This document shows positions 1-16,420 of a DNA stretch of 39,263 nucleotides, in pieces. Source of the stretch: Escherichia phage Penshu1; sequence record MK903281.1; one strand, written 5' to 3'. The first letter of the stretch is position 1. Each line of letters begins with the position of its first letter. A model generated the notes under the pieces. The model made no database searches, was not told the origin of the DNA, and saw nothing but the letters and a program-made list of their open reading frames with translations. Both the position numbers and the translations under genes were made by a program.

Positions 1-190
1 TCTCACAGTTCAAGAACCTCAAGTCTCCCCCATAGGCCATCTTTCAGTCCAGACCAAAGGCCCTACCCAGTCTATCATAAGGTTGGACCGATGGTCAAGA
101 CTTCAGGTCAACGATAGGTTGAGGCTATGGCTTAGGGAAGGACGATAGGTTGGGACTATGGGTCTGCCTCTGAGTCTCTATCTGTATAGT
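1..190. repeat. Left genome end, probable terminal-repeat region (right boundary approximate)
   Basis: Window begins TCTCACAG, the same octamer that begins the T7 genome, followed by GT-rich sequence resembling the end of the T7 terminal repeat. The right-end copy is not in the window, so the length cannot be fixed. Confidence 0.35.
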
Positions 191-206
191 GATATAGTAT
201 AACATT

Positions 207-300
207 ACGTCCTACACCTACAGTCTCACTAACCTACAGTCCAACACCTACAGTCATAGACCATGAGACACTCACAGCCTACAGTCATAGACCTACAGTT
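207..300. repeat. Array of five CCTACAGT short direct repeats next to the terminal repeat
   Basis: CCTACAGT at 217, 233, 247, 278 and 292 with about 15 bp spacing; analogous to the CCTAAAG-type repeats flanking the T7 terminal repeat. Confidence 0.7.
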
Positions 301-410
301 AATAGACACAAAGCTATAGACTTAAGGTCAAAGACATGTTAGTCAAAGACTATATCCTCTTACACCATGAGGCCGACGATAGCTCAATCAATATTATTTC
401 AAATTACCTA

Positions 411-439
411 TTGACTATGGGTCCAGACTATGGCCTAAT
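411..439 (+). promoter_or_regulatory. Possible weak host sigma70 promoter (A1-like)
   Basis: TTGACT at 411-416, 17-bp spacer, CCTAAT at 434-439. The -35 box matches T7 A1 but the -10 lacks the conserved TA at -12/-11. Confidence 0.3.
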
Positions 440-551
440 AGCTTCCGTCAACACGACACGGCAACAACCGGATAGTGAAGACGCCGGGTCATCCCGGTTA
501 AGTAGACAGCCTGATAAGTCGTACGAACAACAGGCAGATGACAGAAAGTAG

Positions 552-581
552 TTGACAAGCAGTACCAATAAGATGTAAGAT
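552..581 (+). promoter_or_regulatory. Host sigma70 early promoter (T7 A2-like)
   Basis: TTGACA at 552-557, 18-bp spacer, TAAGAT at 576-581; the upstream flank (CCGGTTAAGTAGACAGCCTGATAAGTCG) is near-identical to the flank of T7 promoter A2. Confidence 0.6.
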
Positions 582-699
582 GCACCACATCGAAACGACG
601 GTGAAGCCTACCACTGAAACAGGCTAGCATGGCGACGACAGCCAATGCGAATGCTCTTTAACAATCTGGATAACTCTTAATGTGCGCCGATAGCGACTA

Positions 700-735
700 A
701 CTACAGGGTCTTTGAAAGCTGAAGGCCCTGACTGA
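700..735 (+). promoter_or_regulatory. RNase III-like processing hairpin, family 1
   Basis: CAGGGTCTT (704-712) pairs with AAGGCCCTG (722-730) as a 9-bp stem with one G-U pair and a 9-nt loop, directly upstream of the first early gene; position matches T7 R0.3. Confidence 0.5.
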
Positions 736-760
736 TAGTCACTAACTAAAGGATAGACAA

Positions 761-949
761 ATGGCATACCGTAAGATGACCAAAGCAGAAGTGATAGCTG
801 AATGTCGTGAGACTTTCCGCGAGTTCCCTGAGATTTTCAGAGGTGACGACATAGCGAAACAGCAGCACTGGAATGACTACACCGATAGTCTATGCAAGGA
901 TGGCATTATTTCTAACCACCAGTACAACACTTGGTCTAACCCATTTTAA
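761..949 (+). CDS. Hypothetical early protein, 62 aa
   Basis: First ORF after the early promoter and hairpin; weak SD (AAAGGA). No resemblance to T7 Ocr (gp0.3) that I can recognise. Confidence 0.5.
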   Translation: MAYRKMTKAEVIAECRETFREFPEIFRGDDIAKQQHWNDYTDSLCKDGIISNHQYNTWSNPF

Positions 950-961
950 GGAACTACAACC

Positions 962-1486
962 ATGAAACTGATAGGCAAAGGCGCGTTCACTAAGTGCTAC
1001 CTGAAGGACTGCGGGAAGCGTGTACTTCTGGTCTCTTCAGACCCAATCAAGGAGTGTATGGCGTGGGGATGGTTCCCTGAGTCTTCACTGTTCCCTGAAG
1101 TCAAGATGATTGAGGTAGGCACGTATGAGATGGACTACATGCCGCCAACACGAGGTCTCAAGGCGCATTTAGAACATGACCAGTGGCAACTCTATCAGGT
1201 GCTGCGCGACTGCTTCTCACGGTCTCCGGTATACTCTCGACCTGACGAACTGTATCACAAGTGGTACGAGATATTCCAAGATGCACACGACAGGTCTGAG
1301 TCTGAGACTGTGCGTGAGGGCCTGATGGATGTTCTGATGGCGCTGGACGCTTGCGCTAACTTCGGGTCAGACATTCAGTTTGAGATAAGCCTACGCAATG
1401 TACGGGCTGTGGCTGGCAAGTTGATACTGGTCGATTGTTTCTTCCTTGTGTCCAAGCTGCGAGAGGTGAGGTCATCAAGATGGTAA
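962..1486 (+). CDS. Protein kinase-like early protein (gp0.7 kinase-domain-like, C-terminal shut-off domain absent)
   Basis: Gly-rich loop LIGKGAFTKCY near the N-terminus resembles MLGNGHFSAAY of T7 gp0.7; 174 aa versus 359 aa in T7; position matches gene 0.7. Confidence 0.5.
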   Translation: MKLIGKGAFTKCYLKDCGKRVLLVSSDPIKECMAWGWFPESSLFPEVKMIEVGTYEMDYMPPTRGLKAHLEHDQWQLYQVLRDCFSRSPVYSRPDELYHKWYEIFQDAHDRSESETVREGLMDVLMALDACANFGSDIQFEISLRNVRAVAGKLILVDCFFLVSKLREVRSSRW

Positions 1487-1629
1487 CTTATGGTCTCTGC
1501 CAGAAACACGTCACTAGCGCCCGGCTTATGGTTCATACCGGGCAGTTAAACCACGATGCGGCTATGCGTCTCTTGAAAGTGGTCTACAAGCGCCGCAAGC
1601 GAATGCACGACAGTTTGCACGCTGAGTGA
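1480..1629 (+). CDS. Small basic protein, 49 aa, translationally coupled to the kinase-like gene
   Basis: ATG at 1480 overlaps the upstream stop (ATGGTAA); GAGGTGAGG lies about 10 nt upstream; C-terminal KRRKR basic patch. Confidence 0.4.
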   Translation: MVTYGLCQKHVTSARLMVHTGQLNHDAAMRLLKVVYKRRKRMHDSLHAE

Positions 1630-1632
1630 TAG

Positions 1633-1665
1633 ACTACAGGTCCTTTGACTGAAGGGCCTGACTGA
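1633..1665 (+). promoter_or_regulatory. RNase III-like processing hairpin, family 1 (second copy)
   Basis: CAGGTCCTT (1637-1645) pairs with AAGGGCCTG (1652-1660); shares the extended motif CCTGACTGAT(A/T)GTCACT with the hairpin at 700-735. Confidence 0.5.
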
Positions 1666-1697
1666 TTGTCACTTTATAACTACAGAAGGAACGAATA

Positions 1698-2045
1698 ATG
1701 ACTGCTAAAACTCGCAATGTATTCTCGGTAGCATTTAAACTTAAAGTTGTTAACTACTACACCTCCCTGCCTGAGGGAGCTATGGATAGGGTGACGGAAA
1801 CCGCCCAAAAGTTCGGGGTGGGGACGAGTTCGGTGAAGCGCTGGTTTACTCAGTTTAGCCGTGGTGAGCTTACCATGGAAAACGCTATTGCGGTAAGTCG
1901 CAGGCCCTCTAAGGTAATAACAGGGGACACATACCACCTTGCAGGAAAGGACTTCAAGTCCAAAGACGAGGCGATACGCTATGCAGTCGAGCTGGCTGGT
2001 GGGCTTACTGTAACCAAAATGACAACCATCGCGGTGGAAGTGTAG
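1698..2045 (+). CDS. Transposase-type helix-turn-helix DNA-binding protein (IS3 OrfA / HTH_Tnp_1-like), 115 aa
   Basis: FSVAFKLKVVNYY...ETAQKFGVGTSSVKRWFTQF matches the IS3-family OrfA HTH pattern (FxxEFKxxxV...xxAxxxGVxxStlxRWxxQ); RBS GAAGGA upstream; no DDE transposase partner nearby. Confidence 0.6.
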   Translation: MTAKTRNVFSVAFKLKVVNYYTSLPEGAMDRVTETAQKFGVGTSSVKRWFTQFSRGELTMENAIAVSRRPSKVITGDTYHLAGKDFKSKDEAIRYAVELAGGLTVTKMTTIAVEV

Positions 2046-2119
2046 GAGAGTGGTAGACGAGAGGTCATCGACTGATAGGTGGCCTCAAAGATTACCACTT
2101 ACATTGATAGGAGTTAACT

Positions 2120-2209
2120 ATGAACATCGGCTACTGGGTATGCTTATCTCCGGTAATCTTTCTGATAGCTTGGGGGCTTCTGGACGCAATCAAGCGAGGG
2201 TCATTCTAA
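2120..2209 (+). CDS. Small hydrophobic peptide, 29 aa (MNIGYWVCLSPVIFLIAWGLLDAIKRGSF)
   Basis: ATG at 2120 preceded by TAGGAG with 6-nt spacing; single predicted TM helix; stop overlaps the next start (TAATG). Confidence 0.35.
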   Translation: MNIGYWVCLSPVIFLIAWGLLDAIKRGSF

Positions 2210-2406
2210 TGAGCTGGATACTTCCGGTTATCTTCGGTTACGGACTTATCGCCTACGTGATGGGGAGAGACATCAACAAGGCGCGTAAAGTCTACAAATT
2301 AAACTATGTACGTCTAGGTCGCTGGACTGTACGCCAACCTAACGGTCGATTCATGCGTAACTTAGCGAACGTCTGGGATATAGCAACTCTTGGGAGCAAA
2401 CTATAA
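2209..2406 (+). CDS. Small membrane protein, 65 aa
   Basis: Internal ATG of track ORF 2050..2406 preceded by GAGGG; hydrophobic stretch ILPVIFGYGLIAYVMG; the N-terminal extension from 2050 has no RBS. Confidence 0.45.
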   Translation: MSWILPVIFGYGLIAYVMGRDINKARKVYKLNYVRLGRWTVRQPNGRFMRNLANVWDIATLGSKL

Positions 2407-2666
2407 TGAAAACCGCATACACTCACCGCCACTCTTCACACACCGCACTTCAACAGCAGGAGCGTGACCGGGTACTGCAAGCAAGACTCCGGGCTGAGGG
2501 CCATAAGTCCGAGCTGATGGGTCTGATATATGGTGGAAAACCAATCACTGACGACGGCAAACTTCTGGTCTCAGGCTGGAAGGCAATAGACCAACGGTCA
2601 ACCATCAAGCACACGACCCATGGTGACTTCAGTCATCTTCACGCTAACCCACTGATATGCAAGTGA
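2406..2666 (+). CDS. Hypothetical early protein, 86 aa
   Basis: ORF with coupled start (TAATGA overlap) and GGGAG upstream; no recognisable motif. Confidence 0.5.
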   Translation: MKTAYTHRHSSHTALQQQERDRVLQARLRAEGHKSELMGLIYGGKPITDDGKLLVSGWKAIDQRSTIKHTTHGDFSHLHANPLICK

Positions 2667-2672
2667 TTCTGA

Positions 2673-2693
2673 CTTAACTATCACTATAGGACT
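2673..2693 (+). promoter_or_regulatory. Phage RNAP promoter upstream of the RNAP gene (variant CTTAACTATCACTATAGGACT)
   Basis: Matches the 10-copy phage promoter family; +1 G at 2689; lies 71 nt upstream of the RNAP start codon. Confidence 0.6.
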
Positions 2694-2763
2694 CAAGGTC
2701 TAAGACTCCAAGTGAAAGACCAAAGAGACTTTAAGTGAAAGACTAATAACAAGGACTTTAAGT

Positions 2764-5445
2764 ATGAGCGTCATCTCTATTGACAAACACGACTTCTCTG
2801 ATGTGTCTAACGCCATTGAGCCGTTTAACCTGCTGGCTGACCACTATGGGCAAGACCTTGCAGTCAAACAGCTTCAGCTTGAGCATGAGGCATACACTGA
2901 AGGCGAGCGACGTTTCATCAAGAACCTTGAGCGACAGACTGAGCGTGGGGAACTGGCAGACAATCAGGTCGCCAAGCCTCTTATGCAGACTCTGGTCCCT
3001 AAGATTGCGCAAGCCGTTAAGGAGTGGCATGAAGGTCAAGACGGGAAGCTGTCAACCTCTCGTCCTAGCGTAGCTTTCACCATGTTGAGCACCGAAGAGA
3101 AGGTTGTTAAAGACCGCTCCCTACGCATCTCCTGCGAGTCTGCTGCGGTTATCATACTGAAGGTCATACTCTCCAAGCTGGTCAAGCCTGAAGGGATACC
3201 GATTACACCGATGGCCTCCGCGATAGGTCGCACACTTGAGGACGAAATCCGCTTCGGGCGCATCCGTGACAAGGAGCAGGAACACTTCAAGAAGGCGATA
3301 GCTGAGAACCTGAACAAGCGAGCCGGGGCATCCTACAAGAAGGCCTACATGCAAGCGGTTGAGACATCCATGCTGGAGCAGGGTCAACTGGAAGATGCGT
3401 GGGGGACTTGGAGTCCGACCGAGGCGGTACACGTTGGAATCAAGACGCTTGAGATTGTCATCCAGTCAACACAACTGGTCGAGCTTAAGCGCTACGGTGC
3501 TGGCAATGCAGCGGCTGACGTAGAGATGGTCCACCTGTCAGACTTTTGGGTAAAGAAGATGGCACAACGAGGATTTAGCCTTGCGGGCATCTCTCCAGTC
3601 TACCAGCCTTGCGTCGTTCCACCTAAGCCGTGGACCGGTGTCGTAGGCGGTGGGTACTGGGCCAAAGGTCGCAGACCACTACCACTGATTCGCTTAGGGT
3701 CTAAGTCTGCGGTGGCACGTTATGAAGACGTGTACATGCCTGAAGTCTATGACGCTGTGAATATCGTCCAGAATACGCCTTGGAAAGTGAACAAGAAGGT
3801 TCTGGACGTGGTGAACATGGTAGAGAAGCTGAACAACACGCCTATTGATGACATTCCTCAGATGGAGCCGCTGAAGCCTGAAGACTATGCGGGTGAGACT
3901 GAAGAGGAACTCAAGGCATGGAAGAAAGCTGCTGCTGGTATCTATCGCCGCGAGAAGGCCCGACAGTCACGCAGATTGTCACTTAGCTTTATCGTTAACC
4001 AAGCGAACAAGTTCTCTCAGTTCAAGGCCATCTGGTTCCCGTACAACATGGACTGGCGCGGTCGCGTCTACGCTGTGCCGATGTTCAACCCTCAGGGTAA
4101 CGACATGCAGAAGGGTCTCCTAACTCTGGCAGTCGGTAAGCCTATTGGTGCCAATGGTTTCAAATGGCTGAAGGTCCACGGTGCAAACTGTGCGGGTATT
4201 GATAAAGTAACCTTCGAGGAGCGCATCAAGTGGGTGGAAGACAACCACGACAACATAATGGCCACTGCTAAGGCACCGATGGACAGCATTGAGTGGTGGG
4301 GTAAGTTAGACTCTCCGTTCTGCTTCCTAGCGTTCTGCTTCGAGTATGCTGGCGTAATGCATCACGGATTGTCTTACTCCTGCTCGCTGCCGATAGCGTT
4401 CGATGGGTCCTGCTCTGGGATTCAGCACTTCAGCGCGATGCTTCGCGACCACATCGGTGGACATGCGGTAAACCTGACGCCTTCCGGTAAGGTCCAAGAC
4501 ATCTACCGCATCGTGTCTGACCGCATTGAGGAAGAGCTTAAAGTCCTGCTGGTTAACGGCACGGACAACGAGATGGTAACTCACGAGGACAAGAAAACTG
4601 GTGAGATTACCGAACGTCTCAAGCTGGGGACACGAGAGCTGGCCCGGCAGTGGCTGACTTACGGTATGTCACGCAAGGTGACTAAGCGTTCGGTCATGAC
4701 TCTGGCCTACGGGTCGAAAGAGTACGGCTTTGCAGACCAAGTGTACGAGGACATCGTGATGTCAGCGATTGACTCAGGGTCTGGCGCTATGTTCACTGAG
4801 CCAAGACAAGCGTCTCGCTTCATGGCTAAGATGATTTGGGAAGCTGTGAGTGTGACTGTAGTTGCTGCGGTTGACGCAATGAAGTGGCTTCAAGGTGCTG
4901 CCAAGCTGCTGGCGGCTGAAGTGAAGGACAAGAAGACTGGAGAAATCCTGAAGCCTTGCCTTCCGGTACACTGGGTCACACCTGACGGTTTCCCGGTCTG
5001 GCAGGAATACCGCAAGAAGGATACCACTCGTCTGAACCTGATGTTCTTAGGGTCCTTCAACCTTCAACCTACGGTCAACAAGGGCACGAAGAAGGAGCTT
5101 GACAAGCACAAGCAGGAGTCAGGCATTAGCCCGAACTTCGTCCACTCACAGGATGGAAGCCACCTACGCAAGACCGTAGTTCACACGCACCGCAAGTATG
5201 GCGTGATGTCATTCGCAGTGATTCACGATAGCTTCGGGACTATCCCGGCTGACGCTGAGTATCTGTTCCGTGGTGTCCGTGAAACGATGGTCGAGACCTA
5301 CCGCGACAACGATGTGCTGCTTGACTTCTATGAGCAGTTTGAATACCAGCTTCATGAGAGCCAGCGCGACAAGTTGCCTGAGCTTCCGAAGAAAGGTAAA
5401 CTGAATATCGAAGACATTCTGTCTTCAGACTTTGCATTCGCTTAA
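2764..5445 (+). CDS. Single-subunit DNA-directed RNA polymerase (T7 gene 1 homologue), 893 aa
   Basis: DGSCSGIQHFSAMLRD, IHDSFGTIPADA and C-terminal ...DFAFA match T7 RNAP signature segments; size matches the 883-aa T7 enzyme. Confidence 0.97.
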   Translation: MSVISIDKHDFSDVSNAIEPFNLLADHYGQDLAVKQLQLEHEAYTEGERRFIKNLERQTERGELADNQVAKPLMQTLVPKIAQAVKEWHEGQDGKLSTSRPSVAFTMLSTEEKVVKDRSLRISCESAAVIILKVILSKLVKPEGIPITPMASAIGRTLEDEIRFGRIRDKEQEHFKKAIAENLNKRAGASYKKAYMQAVETSMLEQGQLEDAWGTWSPTEAVHVGIKTLEIVIQSTQLVELKRYGAGNAAADVEMVHLSDFWVKKMAQRGFSLAGISPVYQPCVVPPKPWTGVVGGGYWAKGRRPLPLIRLGSKSAVARYEDVYMPEVYDAVNIVQNTPWKVNKKVLDVVNMVEKLNNTPIDDIPQMEPLKPEDYAGETEEELKAWKKAAAGIYRREKARQSRRLSLSFIVNQANKFSQFKAIWFPYNMDWRGRVYAVPMFNPQGNDMQKGLLTLAVGKPIGANGFKWLKVHGANCAGIDKVTFEERIKWVEDNHDNIMATAKAPMDSIEWWGKLDSPFCFLAFCFEYAGVMHHGLSYSCSLPIAFDGSCSGIQHFSAMLRDHIGGHAVNLTPSGKVQDIYRIVSDRIEEELKVLLVNGTDNEMVTHEDKKTGEITERLKLGTRELARQWLTYGMSRKVTKRSVMTLAYGSKEYGFADQVYEDIVMSAIDSGSGAMFTEPRQASRFMAKMIWEAVSVTVVAAVDAMKWLQGAAKLLAAEVKDKKTGEILKPCLPVHWVTPDGFPVWQEYRKKDTTRLNLMFLGSFNLQPTVNKGTKKELDKHKQESGISPNFVHSQDGSHLRKTVVHTHRKYGVMSFAVIHDSFGTIPADAEYLFRGVRETMVETYRDNDVLLDFYEQFEYQLHESQRDKLPELPKKGKLNIEDILSSDFAFA

Positions 5446-5505
5446 CAGGAGAGAGTTATGAAATTTGCACATAAGCAGACTGGCGTTAAGGGTGGGACTT
5501 AAATC

Positions 5506-5673
5506 GTGACCGTAACAGAACACAACGGCAAGGGTCTGGTGAAGACCACAGTCATTCCTACCGAAATGTCAAAGCAGCTTAACGTCCCATTCAAGACCCT
5601 CGTCTATCTTGTGGAATCCAGCCACGAGAAGTACCTGAAGGACGCAGTGACCAAGCTGGAGCAGGCCAAATGA
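5506..5673 (+). CDS. Possible small ORF (GTG start), in frame with a 14-codon ATG-initiated peptide ending at TAA 5500-5502
   Basis: Strong RBS (AGGAGAG) serves ATG 5458, which hits an in-frame TAA after 14 codons; the reading frame stays open from the GTG at 5506 to 5673. Confidence 0.2.
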   Translation: MTVTEHNGKGLVKTTVIPTEMSKQLNVPFKTLVYLVESSHEKYLKDAVTKLEQAK

Positions 5674-5749
5674 CAGACCTACAGTTACTGGCCTTGTGGC
5701 TGGGAGCACTAGCAGTATTCACTTTAATCCATCGCAGAAGAGGTTAACC

Positions 5750-5770
5750 CTAAACTATCACTATAGGATT
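5750..5770 (+). promoter_or_regulatory. Phage RNAP promoter (phi1.1-like)
   Basis: CTAAACTATCACTATAGGATT, +1 G at 5766. Confidence 0.75.
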
Positions 5771-5812
5771 AGACTCAAGGTCATGACTCAAAGTCGTGGC
5801 CTTCATGATTAA
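5770..5812 (+). promoter_or_regulatory. RNase III-like processing hairpin, family 2 (R1.1-like)
   Basis: AAGGTCAT (5777-5784) pairs with GTGGCCTT (5796-5803) using G-U wobbles; the conserved TAGACTCAAGGTCAT...GTGGCCTT(T/C)ATG motif recurs at 12520 and 36233. Confidence 0.55.
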
Positions 5813-5844
5813 CCATAAATAAACACTACTGGAGATTTAACCGT

Positions 5845-6024
5845 ATGTATCAGAACACTATCAACTTCGAGCGCATCCGTGAACGTCAGCAGACTGAAGG
5901 TTACATTCCTAAGGGCCGCAAGCTGAACAAGACTAAACGTGGCGGTGGCGTGAAGGGTGCTTTCCGTAACGCTGAAGGTAAAGACTCTATGGTTAACCAA
6001 GAGAAGTATTTCGTAGGAGCATAG
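5845..6024 (+). CDS. gp1.1-like small basic protein, 59 aa
   Basis: ATG at 5845 with GGAGA RBS; contains GRKLNKTKR as in T7 gp1.1; below the 60-aa cutoff of the ORF track. Confidence 0.55.
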   Translation: MYQNTINFERIRERQQTEGYIPKGRKLNKTKRGGGVKGAFRNAEGKDSMVNQEKYFVGA

Positions 6025-6028
6025 CCAA

Positions 6029-6286
6029 ATGGGCAGACTTTATAGTGGCAACCTAAACGCTTTCAAAGCAGCGTGTAACCGACTCTATCAGTTAGACTTC
6101 TGCGTGATACAGCAGGACTGGTACGATGCGCATCTTCGGAAAGAGTGCATGAGACTTCAAGTCGAGGACCGAGCTGGTAGCATCTTCTCGCTTAAGACCT
6201 TCGCACACCGCGATGAAGACGTACTGTATAACACTGCAACAGGCTTCCTTAACTGTCTCGCTAACCAACTCGACACATGGAGATAA
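6029..6286 (+). CDS. gp1.2-like protein (host dGTPase inhibitor family), 85 aa
   Basis: MGRLYSGNLNAFKAA...DWYDA...HRDEDVLYN aligns along its length with T7 gp1.2 (MGRLYSGNLAAFKAA...). Confidence 0.8.
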   Translation: MGRLYSGNLNAFKAACNRLYQLDFCVIQQDWYDAHLRKECMRLQVEDRAGSIFSLKTFAHRDEDVLYNTATGFLNCLANQLDTWR

Positions 6287-6290
6287 CACA

Positions 6291-7325
6291 ATGACAACTA
6301 TTAAAACCAACCCGCACCGCGCTGTAGATTACTCTGAGTCTGGCATTAAGAAGGCACTGGAAGCAGCCGGGTCTCTGGAAGCTGAAGTGAAGTATGACGG
6401 TGTGCGTTTAAACCTCATGGTCCTGCGTGAAGGTGAGACCTACTGGCTGAGCCGTGAGTCTAAACCTCTTCCAGCCTTGGAGTGGATGAACTCTGAGTTA
6501 GGTAATGCGTGGACCCAAGCTGACTGGCGATGGTTCCTGCGTCAAGCTGGCTACGAAGGCGTGGGCTTGATGATTGATGGCGAGGTCATGGTCAAAGGCG
6601 TGGACTTCAATACCTCCTCAGGCCTCATCCGAACAAAATGGCTCAAGCCTAGCAACGAGGAGTTCGCTGAATGTTATCCGGGCCGTGGCAAGAAGGTCCC
6701 GTTCTGGGTAGCCCGGTCACGACTTAAGGTTGTTGTCTACGGTGTCGTTGATATGCCGACCATAGCCGACCCAAAAGCCGAAGGTCCTATCCATAGCGTC
6801 ACACGCCTGAAGGCCGAAGCTATCGTCCCTCTCCTCCAGAAATACTTCCCGGAAATCGACTGGGTTCTGTCTGAGTCACACACGGTCTATGACCTTGAGT
6901 CGCTCAACTCCCTGTACGAAGAGAAGCGTCTGGAAGGACACGAGGGTCTGGTAGTCAAGGACCCGCTTGGTAAGTACAAGCGTGGCAAGAAGTCTGGCAT
7001 GTGGAAGATGAAGCCTGAGGAGACCATCGACGGGACTGTGTGTGGCCTAGTGTGGGGGACTCCTGGTAAGGCTAACGAGGGCAAGGTGATTGGCTTTGAG
7101 GTACTCTTAGAGGACGGCATGGTGGTTAACGCCTGCGGTCTGACTGAATCTCAGAAGGACGAGCTCACTGCTGAGGTTAAACGTCAGGAAGACGAAGAGG
7201 TTAATCCCTACGAAGGCTGGCAGGTTGAAGTCCTCTTTATGGAGCGATTCCCTGACGGCTCATTGCGTCACCCTAGCTTCAAGTGCTGGCGAGGGACGGA
7301 AGATGACCCGACCATTAAGAGCTAA
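6291..7325 (+). CDS. ATP-dependent DNA ligase (T7 gene 1.3 homologue), 344 aa
   Basis: Start moved to ATG 6291 (MTTIKTNPH..., GGAGA RBS), matching the T7 ligase N-terminus; adenylation motif KYDGVR; C-terminal SLRHPSF...RGTED as in T7. Confidence 0.9.
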   Translation: MTTIKTNPHRAVDYSESGIKKALEAAGSLEAEVKYDGVRLNLMVLREGETYWLSRESKPLPALEWMNSELGNAWTQADWRWFLRQAGYEGVGLMIDGEVMVKGVDFNTSSGLIRTKWLKPSNEEFAECYPGRGKKVPFWVARSRLKVVVYGVVDMPTIADPKAEGPIHSVTRLKAEAIVPLLQKYFPEIDWVLSESHTVYDLESLNSLYEEKRLEGHEGLVVKDPLGKYKRGKKSGMWKMKPEETIDGTVCGLVWGTPGKANEGKVIGFEVLLEDGMVVNACGLTESQKDELTAEVKRQEDEEVNPYEGWQVEVLFMERFPDGSLRHPSFKCWRGTEDDPTIKS

Positions 7326-7334
7326 CTAAATGTC

Positions 7335-7368
7335 AACCCAGTGGTCTTAGGACTGCTGGGTTTCTTTG
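7335..7368 (+). terminator. Rho-independent early terminator (T7 TE-like)
   Basis: Stem ACCCAGTGGTC / GACTGCTGGGT with loop TTAG, followed by TTTCTTT, directly after the ligase stop. Confidence 0.5.
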
Positions 7369-7390
7369 CGTCTAGGCCACCAGCTAGACC

Positions 7391-7412
7391 CTAAGCTATC
7401 ACTATAGGACAA
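7391..7412 (+). promoter_or_regulatory. Phage RNAP promoter (variant CTAAGCTATCACTATAGGAC)
   Basis: One mismatch to the family consensus upstream of the core; +1 G at 7407. Confidence 0.65.
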
Positions 7413-7436
7413 CCAACAACAGCCTAAGGAGACTCT

Positions 7437-7697
7437 ATGTCTAAGAACTTAATGTTCAACCGTTATTCCAATACCTTCCACCTGTCCAACAACCAGTTCG
7501 CTTGCATTAAGCGCAACGAGAAGCTGGGCTACTTCGGGAAGGCCGTTAAGCTGTCACCTACAGTCTTCGCTCTGATTACTCCGGGCAAAGCTGAAGAGGC
7601 TCGCCAGAAGCGTGAGACCAATGTGCCTGTGGTCCACACTAAGTGGCCCCGAGTTCGTCTGTTCGTTGAATTCATGAAGGAGGTGATCAATGACTAA
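7437..7697 (+). CDS. Hypothetical protein, 86 aa (gene 1.6 position)
   Basis: ORF with AAGGAG RBS at 5-nt spacing immediately downstream of a phage promoter. Confidence 0.55.
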   Translation: MSKNLMFNRYSNTFHLSNNQFACIKRNEKLGYFGKAVKLSPTVFALITPGKAEEARQKRETNVPVVHTKWPRVRLFVEFMKEVIND

Positions 7698-8025
7698 GCA
7701 CCATGAGTTGTGCCGCTCAGTCCTTAGCTCCGGTCCGTGCGACTGCGGTGCTGTTCTTGGATTCCGCGCCGAGTGTATTGAAGATGACGCTGTACGCAAG
7801 CCATCCCACTATCAGGTCTTTGACGGTGTCGAGTCCATTGAGATTATCGCTCGGTCCATGACTGTCAGCGAGTTCCGCGGGTTCTGCATGGGTAACGTCC
7901 TGAAGTATCGACTCCGGGCTGGTAAGAAGTCCGAACTGGCTACTATGGAGAAGGACCTGAACAAAGCAGCCTTCTATCAGGAGCTGTTCGACCTGCATAA
8001 AGGTAAGTGCTATGATGCCGAGTGA
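7690..8025 (+). CDS. gp1.7-like protein (nucleotide kinase family), C-terminal-domain-only, 111 aa
   Basis: PSHYQVFDGVESIEIIARSMTVSEFRGFCMGNVLKYRLRAGKKSELA matches the C-terminal half of T7 gp1.7 (196 aa). Confidence 0.75.
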   Translation: MTKHHELCRSVLSSGPCDCGAVLGFRAECIEDDAVRKPSHYQVFDGVESIEIIARSMTVSEFRGFCMGNVLKYRLRAGKKSELATMEKDLNKAAFYQELFDLHKGKCYDAE

Positions 8026-8107
8026 TTGGTGCCGGGAGATGTACGAGAAGACTCTCAACCCGGACTACATTACATTATACAACCAATGGAAGGAGCGCGG
8101 TTTATGA
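8012..8107 (+). CDS. gp1.8-like small protein, 31 aa
   Basis: [31 protein letters not shown] resembles the T7 gp1.8 C-terminus (WCRKMWEETFDDAYIKLYELWKSRGQ); overlaps both neighbouring genes. Confidence 0.55.
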
Positions 8108-8262
8108 CTGAGGTTGAGAAGAAATACATCGTGGAGCTTGAGGGGCGCGTTCAGTCCTTCGAGGTTCCGGTGTACGCAAAGTCTCTTGAAGAGGCTACCC
8201 TGAAGTCCCAAGAGTATGAGGACGCTGGGTTTGTGGTCGGACGGATTCGTCCTGAGACCTAA
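8104..8262 (+). CDS. gp2-like inhibitor of host RNA polymerase, 52 aa
   Basis: Start moved to ATG 8104 (GGAAGGAG RBS); [35 protein letters not shown] aligns with T7 gp2 ([35 protein letters not shown]). Confidence 0.75.
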
Positions 8263-8280
8263 ACTATCACTGTAGGACAG
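8259..8280 (+). promoter_or_regulatory. Phage RNAP promoter, degenerate (CTAAACTATCACTGTAGGACA), phi2.5-like
   Basis: Family match except A-to-G at position -3; +1 G at 8275; directly upstream of the SSB gene. Confidence 0.55.
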
Positions 8281-8320
8281 ACGTCCAGTTCGTAACTTTT
8301 AAATTAGGAGATTTACACCG

Positions 8321-9022
8321 ATGGCTAAAGAGCAACTGAAGACTTTCACCACTCCGGTAGCTGGTATCGTTGAGCCTTACGCATGGCTGAACAAAGCAGA
8401 CACCAAGTTTAACGAGCGTGGTGAGCATAAGGTTAACCTGACGTTCGACCTGAGCGACCCGAAGGTCCGTAAGATGATTGATGTCTTACAGAAGATTCAC
8501 GACGATGCGTATGCGAAAGCACTCGCAGACCACGAGAAGAACCCACCTCAGGTTCAGCGTGGCAAGAAGCCTATCGAGCCGCGTGAAGGCGATATGCCGT
8601 GGATTGAGAATGGTGACGGTACTGTTACCATGAAGTTTAAATGCTTTGCGTCTTACCTGAAAGACGGCAAGTCCGAGCCTATCGTATTACGGTTCTACGA
8701 CACCGATGCTAAACTCATCCGTGACGTCCCGAATATTGGCGCTGGGTCTAAGCTGAAGGTCAAGTTCAAAGTCCTGCCGTTCAAGTGGAACGCTGCGACT
8801 GGTGCAAGCGTTAAGCTGCAGCTTGAGTCCTGCCTTCTGGTAGAACTGAAGGAGTGGAAAGGTGATGGTGCTGGTGGCGATGGTGGTTGGGGTGATGATG
8901 AAGACCTCGGTACTGGTTATAAAGCGCCAACTGATGGTGACTTCGGGTCTGACGACTTCGGGTCTGACGATGGTTCCGAAGGTGGTGACGACTCCGGCTC
9001 TGGTGGCGATTACGACTTCTGA
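8321..9022 (+). CDS. Single-stranded DNA-binding protein (T7 gene 2.5 homologue), 233 aa
   Basis: Collinear similarity to T7 gp2.5 including the acidic C-terminal tail ending in F (...GGDYDF). Confidence 0.9.
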   Translation: MAKEQLKTFTTPVAGIVEPYAWLNKADTKFNERGEHKVNLTFDLSDPKVRKMIDVLQKIHDDAYAKALADHEKNPPQVQRGKKPIEPREGDMPWIENGDGTVTMKFKCFASYLKDGKSEPIVLRFYDTDAKLIRDVPNIGAGSKLKVKFKVLPFKWNAATGASVKLQLESCLLVELKEWKGDGAGGDGGWGDDEDLGTGYKAPTDGDFGSDDFGSDDGSEGGDDSGSGGDYDF

Positions 9023-9907: not shown

Positions 9908-10131
9908 TGACTCAGGAAGTTAAGGTCGTTCGTCAGCGTCTGACCATTGATAAAATCCCGGTGGGCTATGCGTTTATCATCCACGGTAAGCCGGGTGAAG
10001 TGTACGTGAAGATTAGTAACTCTCACGTCTTCAACCATAAGTTACTCCAGATGCACACCACGGATGCTAACCGCTTCCAGCGTCATCTGAACCTCGTAGC
10101 TGTAGAGCTGGTGGTGTACGATGGTGAGTAA
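9907..10131 (+). CDS. Hypothetical protein, 74 aa
   Basis: ATG at 9907 overlaps the gene 3 stop, with AAGGAG 7 nt upstream; no recognisable motif. Confidence 0.5.
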   Translation: MTQEVKVVRQRLTIDKIPVGYAFIIHGKPGEVYVKISNSHVFNHKLLQMHTTDANRFQRHLNLVAVELVVYDGE

Positions 10132-10579
10132 GGTGAAATTCAACCCACGGTCCCGGACTGACGCTATCTTCGTTCACTGTTCGGCTACCAAGCCAGAGAT
10201 GGACATAGGGGTAGAGACCATCCGTATGTGGCACAAGCAGCAAGGATGGCTGGACGTAGGCTACCACTTTATCATCAAGCGCGATGGTACTGTGGAAGAG
10301 GGACGCCCGGTCAATGTCGTAGGGTCACACGTTAAGGATTGGAACTCCAAGTCCGTAGGCGTCTGCCTTGTAGGTGGAATTGACGCCAAGGGCAAGTTTG
10401 AAGCTAACTTCACTCCGGACCAGATGAACTCCCTGCGCAACAAGCTGGCTGACCTGAAGGCCCTGTATCCTCAGGCAGAGATAAAAGCACACCATGACGT
10501 AGCACCAAAGGCGTGTCCAAGTTTCGACTTGCAACGCTGGCTGTCTACCAATGAGCTGGTCACTTCCGACCGTGGTTAA
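10121..10579 (+). CDS. N-acetylmuramoyl-L-alanine amidase / lysozyme (T7 gene 3.5 homologue), 152 aa
   Basis: TDAIFVHCSATKP, GWLDVGYHFIIKRDGTVE, AHH(D/E)VAPKACPSFDL and C-terminal NELVTSDRG are near-identical to T7 lysozyme. Confidence 0.92.
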   Translation: MVSKVKFNPRSRTDAIFVHCSATKPEMDIGVETIRMWHKQQGWLDVGYHFIIKRDGTVEEGRPVNVVGSHVKDWNSKSVGVCLVGGIDAKGKFEANFTPDQMNSLRNKLADLKALYPQAEIKAHHDVAPKACPSFDLQRWLSTNELVTSDRG

Positions 10580-16359: not shown

Positions 16360-16420
16360 TTAGGACCTAAGATATGACTATAAGATAGACTTTAGTCTTA
16401 ACTTAAAGAGGAGATTCAAG

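Follow-up and report, generated by a model that had tools for sequence, protein, structure and literature searches.

The window analysed here, a stretch of 39,263 bp, is a complete Kayfunavirus genome of the K1F/EcoDS1/SH3 group (Studiervirinae). It starts with a T7-type left end (TCTCACAG), and its early region is 92-94% identical to that of Citrobacter phage SH3, Escherichia phages EcoDS1 and Peacock, and other Kayfunavirus. Gene 1 encodes the phage RNA polymerase (RNAP), and an early gene lies directly upstream of it (Table 1). The 97-nt gap between the stop of the early gene (2666) and gene 1 contains, on the same strand as gene 1, the sequence CTTAACTATCACTATAGGACT at positions 2673-2693; its 3' end is 71 nt before the RNAP ATG. 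The original prediction identified this 21-mer as a copy of the phage promoter family, and the match proved exact, the copy being one of 10 in the genome. Herein, the promoter before gene 1 is called phi1, a name used in this analysis. In T7 numbering, -17 of phi1 falls at 2672, 6 nt after the stop codon of the 86-aa early gene, and +6 at 2694, while the distance from +1 (2689) to the RNAP ATG (2764) is 75 nt.

Table 1. Features of the window that bear on the transcription of gene 1
Feature	Position	Strand	Remarks
Sigma-70-like early promoter candidate, TTGACA-18-TAAGAT, the best one	552..581	+	Consensus match only
Second sigma-70-like candidate	712-739	+	Consensus match
Upstream early gene, 86 aa, phrog_7066, gp0.38/0.42-like, function unknown	2406..2666	+	
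phi1 promoter, -17 to +6, 23 bp, ACTTAACTATCACTATAGGACTC	2672..2694	+	+1 = G2689
Imperfect hairpin, 19 bp, -16.4 kcal/mol, z = -2.3	2681..2738	+	Folding of read-through RNA
phi1 transcript leader, 75 nt, A-rich, 5' end GGACTCAAGGTC	2689..2763	+	
21-nt direct repeat in the leader, AGACTCCAAGTGAAAGACCAA and AGACTTTAAGTGAAAGACTAA, spacing 23 nt	2703-2723, 2726-2746	+	
Ribosome-binding site (RBS) of gene 1, AAGGA	2751-2755	+	
Gene 1, T7-type single-subunit RNA polymerase, 893 aa	2764..5445	+	PF00940 and RPOL_N
Family copy following phi1 (phi1.1 equivalent); both precede the early terminator	5749..5771	+	R1.1-like ACTCAAGGTCATGA... hairpin after it
Early terminator (TE) homologue, AACCCAGTGG...CTGCTGGGTTTCTTTG, end of the host-RNAP early region	7336..7368	+	TE annotated in EcoDS1
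gp2-type host RNAP inhibitor	8026..8262	+	PF16857
gp3.5-type amidase/lysozyme	10121..10579	+	PF01510
Promoter family, +1 positions	2689, 5766, 7407, 8275, 16354, 19563, 20543, 25270, 32940, 38683	+	Core matches

The family core, CTATCACTRTAGG, occurs 10 times in the genome and always on the + strand; for the 21-mer with up to three mismatches, 0.00 matches were expected from shuffled sequence. All 10 family sites scored 33-37.5 bits with a position-weight matrix, while the next best genomic site scored 15.7 bits. When each site was left out of its own matrix, the family ranged from 29.1 to 36.2 bits; phi1 scored 31.3 bits, mid-range among the early-region promoters and higher than the copies at 5766, 7407 and 8275. 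The 23 bp of phi1 match the genome's own consensus, including the core CACTATAGG, and as in promoters of the K1F class the site is intergenic, lies on the strand of the gene and has a gene with an RBS downstream. The GG at 2689-2690 provides the initiating G residues at +1 and +2. It had been proposed that phi1 may be weak, owing to its GGAC start. This weakness is unsupported, because six of the 10 copies, phi1 included, begin with GGA (GGG starts are found at the late promoters) and its score is within the family range. phi1 thus has the look of a normal early/middle-type promoter of the phage and not of a degenerate copy. The site scoring 15.7 bits (CCTAAGATATGACTATAAGATAG, 16366-16388) is the sole sub-threshold match in the genome; its +1 sits 29 nt downstream of that of the 16354 promoter, and it may be a degenerate tandem copy.

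Next, we consider the signals on either side of phi1. From +1 through gene 1, a search for hairpins with a T-run gave matches at chance level, and the single match to a class II terminator, ATCTGTT at 5261, is followed by no U-run. The locus is thereby arranged as an intact RNAP gene with a cognate, co-oriented promoter and no terminator signal between the two. On the upstream side, no terminator-like site was found before gene 1, and the sigma-70 scan gave counts at chance level; in the corresponding left-end region, the EcoDS1 record annotates three host promoters. No sigma-70-type promoter that overlaps phi1, in the manner of T7 promoter C, was found near 2600-2760. No open reading frame upstream of gene 1 is long enough for a gp0.7-type kinase, which relatives such as Pisces do have. 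Literature searches found no transcript maps for Kayfunavirus or K1F.

The non-coding left end holds several further elements. At 179-186 lies TATCTGTA, at the position of a 'concatemeric junction' feature annotated in EcoDS1. Right after it (within 179-205), the minus strand carries ACTATATCACTATACAG, a promoter-like, leftward-pointing sequence that corresponds to the family core interrupted by 2 inserted nt. Short repeats (CCTACAGTC...) are clustered at 215-300, among them TCTATGACTGTAGG on the minus strand at 247-260 and 278-291, and the cluster resembles the repeat arrays near the T7 genome ends.

The phi1 region is widely conserved. A 241-nt region containing it was found in more than 200 GenBank phage records, and a 45-nt region centred on it in 208, of which 110 were at least 99% identical. 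For the comparison with divergent relatives, we used their whole genomes together with 80 RNAP-encoding IMG/VR loci with 10-kb flanks, and the promoter family of each genome was derived de novo. The Kayfunavirus-like genomes numbered 26 and comprised the window, 4 GenBank genomes and 21 IMG/VR loci (RNAP identities of 78-99%), and every one of them has a family member 74-93 nt upstream of gene 1; these are not 26 independent tests, because some IMG/VR loci duplicate GenBank isolates, and they represent about two independent specificity switches. Among 29 unique Kayfunavirus sequences, the mean column identity was 0.94 for the promoter, compared with 0.79 for the spacer before it and 0.85 for the leader after it, while the RBS of gene 1 reached 0.98. 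Two lineages deviate within the promoter: the gene-1 copy of the Pisces-type phages has an A at -2, unlike every other promoter of theirs, and that of ASO2B has a T at -3. Judging by these substitutions, the strength of phi1 may differ between lineages. A phi1 promoter before gene 1 is a hallmark of the genus Kayfunavirus.

If the promoter before gene 1 is read by the polymerase that this gene encodes, then its recognition region should agree with the specificity loop of that polymerase. In all 26 genomes, the hexamer at -12 to -7 of the gene-1 copy was the consensus of the genome's other promoters. Three classes of hexamer were found, and each went with its own loop (T7 numbering). ACTATC (21 genomes) was found with N748/N756/Q758, which is also the loop encoded in the window, where phi1 is cognate to it; ACCCTC (4 genomes) with D748/R756/Q758, which is identical to the loop of T3, a phage that also reads ACCCT; and AGGTAC (1 genome) with K748/Q756/R758. 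In line with the first class, a T7 RNAP carrying the K1F loop was active and orthogonal on a promoter with the K1F -12 to -7 consensus (Temme 2012, PMC3458549). The flanking leader is homologous across the classes, and the promoter was therefore re-tuned in place and not replaced. Since phi1 has tracked the RNAP through at least two specificity switches, selection acts on this site as a promoter. Recombination that homogenises the promoter copies could also have a part in this pattern of covariation. The ACCCTC class consists of the IMG/VR loci L011, L012, L029 and L051, whose D748/R756/Q758 loop with AACCCTCACT is the T3 solution, either shared or convergent. The AGGTAC class is L027 (RNAP 78% identical), which uses AAGGAAGGTACACTATAGG and in which the gene-1 copy is flanked by the inverted repeat GGGCTTA...TAAGCCC.

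The original prediction contrasted this locus with T7, in which no phage promoter was said to precede gene 1. This is correct for the region immediately upstream: directly before gene 1, T7 and T3 have the E. coli promoter C and the RNase III site R1, and no phage promoter. Further upstream it does not hold, since phiOL lies there on the same strand (annotated at nt 405 in the T7 record and at 366-388 in the T3 record). The contrast was overstated, because T7, T3 and K11-like phages carry phiOL upstream of gene 1, as about 50 contigs of this kind showed. Like phi1, phiOL is a phage-RNAP promoter upstream of gene 1 and in principle allows the RNAP to transcribe its own gene; unlike phi1, it belongs to the left end, some 2.6-2.8 kb away from gene 1 and ahead of the host promoters. 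It has been described as a non-canonical promoter in weak use, with a link to genome entry mediated by the RNAP (PMC6171733).

The two promoters have complementary distributions. No family member was found within 400 nt of gene 1 in any of the 52 T7-, T3- and K11/KP32-like loci in which a family could be detected (0/52), and nearly all of these loci had one 2.2-3.4 kb upstream. In the Kayfunavirus-like genomes, by contrast, the gene-1 promoter is present and phiOL is absent; in the window, no family member was found on the + strand in 1-2671. Over about 75 genomes, phi1 and phiOL were mutually exclusive. In some T7/T3/K11-like contigs, apparent promoters were detected 600-2000 nt upstream of gene 1, and these were rejected as equivalents of phi1: they are either phiOL with a shortened early region or off-consensus sites ahead of a kinase gene. 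Two T7-like IMG/VR loci, L042 (+1 at 2083) and L052 (+1 at 9020), have such a weak, off-consensus promoter-like site directly ahead of a kinase-sized open reading frame (311-376 aa) that precedes gene 1. Their arrangement resembles that of Vibrio phage phiA318, described below.

The arrangement at phi1 is already known and not new, as it is annotated in EcoDS1 and CR44b and has precedents in gh-1, LUZ100 and phiA318. In the EcoDS1 record (EU734172), a 'promoter phi' whose 23 bp are the same as those of phi1 is listed ahead of gene 1 (2244-2266), and the record of Citrobacter phage CR44b (HG818823) has a 'predicted promoter' at 1814-1836, at the same site and 100% identical over 45 nt. In both, the distance to gene 1 is as in the window and the element itself shows no differences; the two entries are annotations only, with no experiments and no discussion of feedback. 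The site is unannotated in the K1F record (DQ111067) and in many other Kayfunavirus records. In a 2026 paper on the Kayfunavirus Sparklingdew, a repeat with the sequence CTWAACTATCACTATAGG is listed where the gene in front of the RNAP gene has its 3' end (PMC13298934).

Outside the genus, Pseudomonas phage gh-1 (NC_004665), another member of the Studiervirinae, has an annotated putative phi1 at 939-961, about 100 nt upstream of its RNAP gene. It shares with the window an A-rich leader with AAGGTC/AAAGACC motifs, but it belongs to another genus, has another promoter consensus and has hardly any early genes ahead of gene 1. The R1 hairpin annotated in gh-1 precedes phi1, whereas the hairpin in the window overlaps the promoter. 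In Pseudomonas phage LUZ100, the start site of a phage-specific promoter, also called phi1, was mapped by ONT-cappable-seq immediately before the RNAP gene, and the authors of that study proposed a positive-feedback model, in which host RNAP makes the first phage RNAP and this enzyme then amplifies its own transcription (PMC10134795). LUZ100 is a distant relative with temperate features, and a MarR-like repressor was proposed as the gate of its loop. For phiA318, a phage promoter was predicted in front of the transcription unit of the kinase and the RNAP, and its authors read this as autoregulation (PMC4099482); the site precedes the kinase gene and not the RNAP gene directly, and it is a prediction only. 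No convincing SP6-type promoter was found before the RNAP gene of SP6, where the best site has 5 mismatches and is 1.27 kb upstream. The circuit logic, a polymerase gene under its cognate promoter, is the same as that of the T7 'autogene', in which Dubendorff and Studier in 1991 reportedly cloned T7 gene 1 behind a T7 promoter; that autogene is an engineered plasmid, not a natural phage.

RNA from this locus differs in its folding potential according to where it begins. The leader has a GC content of 0.35-0.38, and when folded alone it showed no significant structure (z = +0.43; for RNA from +1, z = -0.06). In RNAalifold runs on the leaders alone, the 5' end paired only weakly with the RBS, and no covariation was seen. 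The hairpin of Table 1 is possible only in RNA read through from upstream: its 5' arm is the promoter from -8 to +6 (2681-2694), the partner bases in the leader reach to 2738, and the outer stem pairs the promoter-core TCACT (-8 to -4) with AGTGA (2734-2738). RNA begun at +1 has no outer stem. Equivalent hairpins were found in Ro103C3lw (z = -2.8) and Pisces (z = -2.1), while EcpYZU01 and L027 have none. When 10 sequences were aligned, RNAalifold recovered the hairpin with 98.6% of cells paired and one compensatory pair, between promoter -2 (T as in the window or A as in the Pisces type) and a leader A/T, which occurs in one clade only; most of the pairs are invariant and hence uninformative. 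In the Pisces-type phages, TATCACTAAAG and CTTTAGTGATA are perfectly complementary over 11 bp, which would explain why the A at -2 is found in their gene-1 copy alone.

This hairpin is located where T7 and T3 have the RNase III site R1, and it is built like such sites: irregular, some 20 bp long, interrupted by internal loops and situated in the intergenic RNA that precedes gene 1. A scan of 1-8400 against Rfam at E <= 1 returned no match; Rfam has no model for T7-type RNase III processing sites. The hairpin arm (-8 to +6) could account for part of the conservation of phi1, though not for that of -12 to -9.

Several sequences in the leader recur elsewhere. Within 2703-2746 and 2754-2763 of the gene 1 leader, GACTTTAAGT occurs twice, its second copy directly abutting the ATG; GACTTTAAG is rare genome-wide, with 4 copies as against 0.3 expected; and the start context GGACTTTAAGTATG is common to T7 gene 1.1 and gene 1 of the window. 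ACTCAAGGTC is over-represented, with 19 matches at up to one mismatch versus 3.4 expected (for example, at 2691, 5773, 12524 and 36238 on the + strand). The copy at 5773 comes after the phi1.1 promoter, like in the T7 phi1.1A/R1.1 module. The ACTCAAGGTC copies probably mark RNase III-type sites across the genome.

Could the conserved sequence be mainly an RNA element, the 5' arm of an R1-type hairpin in host-made early RNA, with its promoter likeness secondary or unused? The restriction of the fold to read-through RNA, its z-scores in three lineages, the nearly complete pairing in the alignment with its compensatory pair at -2, and the presence of R1 at this position in T7 and T3 all speak for a role of the RNA. 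The hairpin cannot replace the promoter reading, however, because it begins at -8, and the bases from -17 to -9 fall outside it, yet they are conserved and switch with RNAP specificity. Moreover, the two relatives with no hairpin still have a cognate promoter, most pairs never vary, and Rfam gave no match. A promoter and a hairpin can also coexist, as phi1.1 and R1.1 do in T3. We thus regard an RNA element as the main reason for the conservation as very unlikely. It is harder still to believe that phi1 is silent or decaying and survives only through recent common ancestry, for instance as what is left of a phi1.1-R1.1 module that was duplicated. The ACTCAAGGTC at the start of the leader does resemble that module, and many of the relatives are very close. 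However, phi1 is kept down to 78% RNAP identity, has had its specificity positions re-tuned in two or more lineages and is more conserved than the adjoining non-coding bases, and a decaying copy is accordingly a most improbable account.

A different possibility is that phi1 is functional, but was selected for something other than autoregulation. It would then be a stand-in for the missing phiOL and for the second phi1.1 promoter, with gene 1 mRNA as a by-product, and would serve as a transcription-primed secondary origin of replication, as the first RNAP entry point on incoming or concatemeric DNA, or as a booster of genes 1.05-1.3. The mutual exclusivity of phi1 and phiOL keeps a phiOL-type role in replication or entry alive for phi1. 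The weak use described for phiOL and its tie to genome entry (PMC6171733) point the same way, as does the GC content of the A-rich leader. T7 promoters near origins serve replication, and the T3 record puts the primary origin just after phi1.05. On the other hand, the constant spacing of 74-93 nt and the conserved RBS tie phi1 to the expression of gene 1, and no origin features (clusters of primase sites or a strongly AT-rich block) were identified. A promoter at this position must transcribe gene 1 in any case, and the roles are not exclusive. Overall, we consider it unlikely that the stand-in role is what phi1 was selected for.

We favor the interpretation that phi1 is a functional promoter for the phage's own RNAP, so that the synthesis of gene 1 mRNA is probably in part self-driven. 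The suggestion that the phage RNAP could transcribe its own gene was supported by the sequence comparisons: phi1 truly belongs to the family, points in the direction of gene 1, has no terminator signal between itself and the gene, and covaries with RNAP specificity in the relatives. Because phi1 is conserved and covaries in this manner, we infer that the phage RNAP very probably initiates there in vivo and so copies gene 1 into RNA. We hold it as highly probable that the RNAP initiates there; that the feedback matters quantitatively we hold with less confidence.

The proposed process would comprise several steps. Host RNAP, starting from the sigma-70 promoters at the left end, would read genes 0.3 to 0.38 and make the first gene 1 mRNA. 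The newly made phage RNAP would then bind phi1, start at G2689 and transcribe gene 1 together with genes 1.05-1.3; with initiation at phi1 by the new RNAP, the synthesis of gene 1 mRNA would become partly self-driven. The phage RNAP is expected to pass TE, which would halt the host RNAP only, and the supply of gene 1 mRNA would persist after gp2 shuts off the host RNAP. In T7, the gp3.5 lysozyme inhibits the phage RNAP. By analogy with that role, the gp3.5 lysozyme of the window would be a likely later brake on the loop.

A more elaborate version combines the promoter with the hairpin, and we put it forward as a tentative and somewhat doubtful idea. It holds that Kayfunavirus has rewired the T7 early-to-middle switch, having lost phiOL and placed a cognate promoter inside an R1-type hairpin, so that two forms of gene 1 mRNA exist. 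The host-made read-through mRNA would fold the full hairpin and be processed by RNase III, whereas the self-made mRNA would start inside the hairpin and could not form the outer stem. The result would be an autocatalytic loop whose mRNA differs from the host-made one in 5' structure, stability or translation. The paired change of T to A at -2 and of A to T in the leader of the Pisces-type phages would then reflect selection on promoter and hairpin together.

In practical terms, the value of this analysis is mostly negative, as the feature is real yet already annotated and the contrast with T7 is weaker than was claimed. Its modest new points are that phi1 tracks the RNAP through at least two specificity switches, that it is mutually exclusive with phiOL, and that it overlaps a hairpin that appears conserved. 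Phage therapy against E. coli K1, Salmonella Typhi and Citrobacter makes much use of Kayfunavirus phages, which are also the source of the orthogonal K1F RNAP. If the loop operates, it would make Kayfunavirus a natural, strictly lytic polymerase autogene, in which the supply of RNAP would be independent of host transcription once the first dose has been made. Such a loop would bear on the timing of host shut-off and on resistance to defences that target the host RNAP, and would also matter to those who engineer phages or design expression circuits based on K1F.
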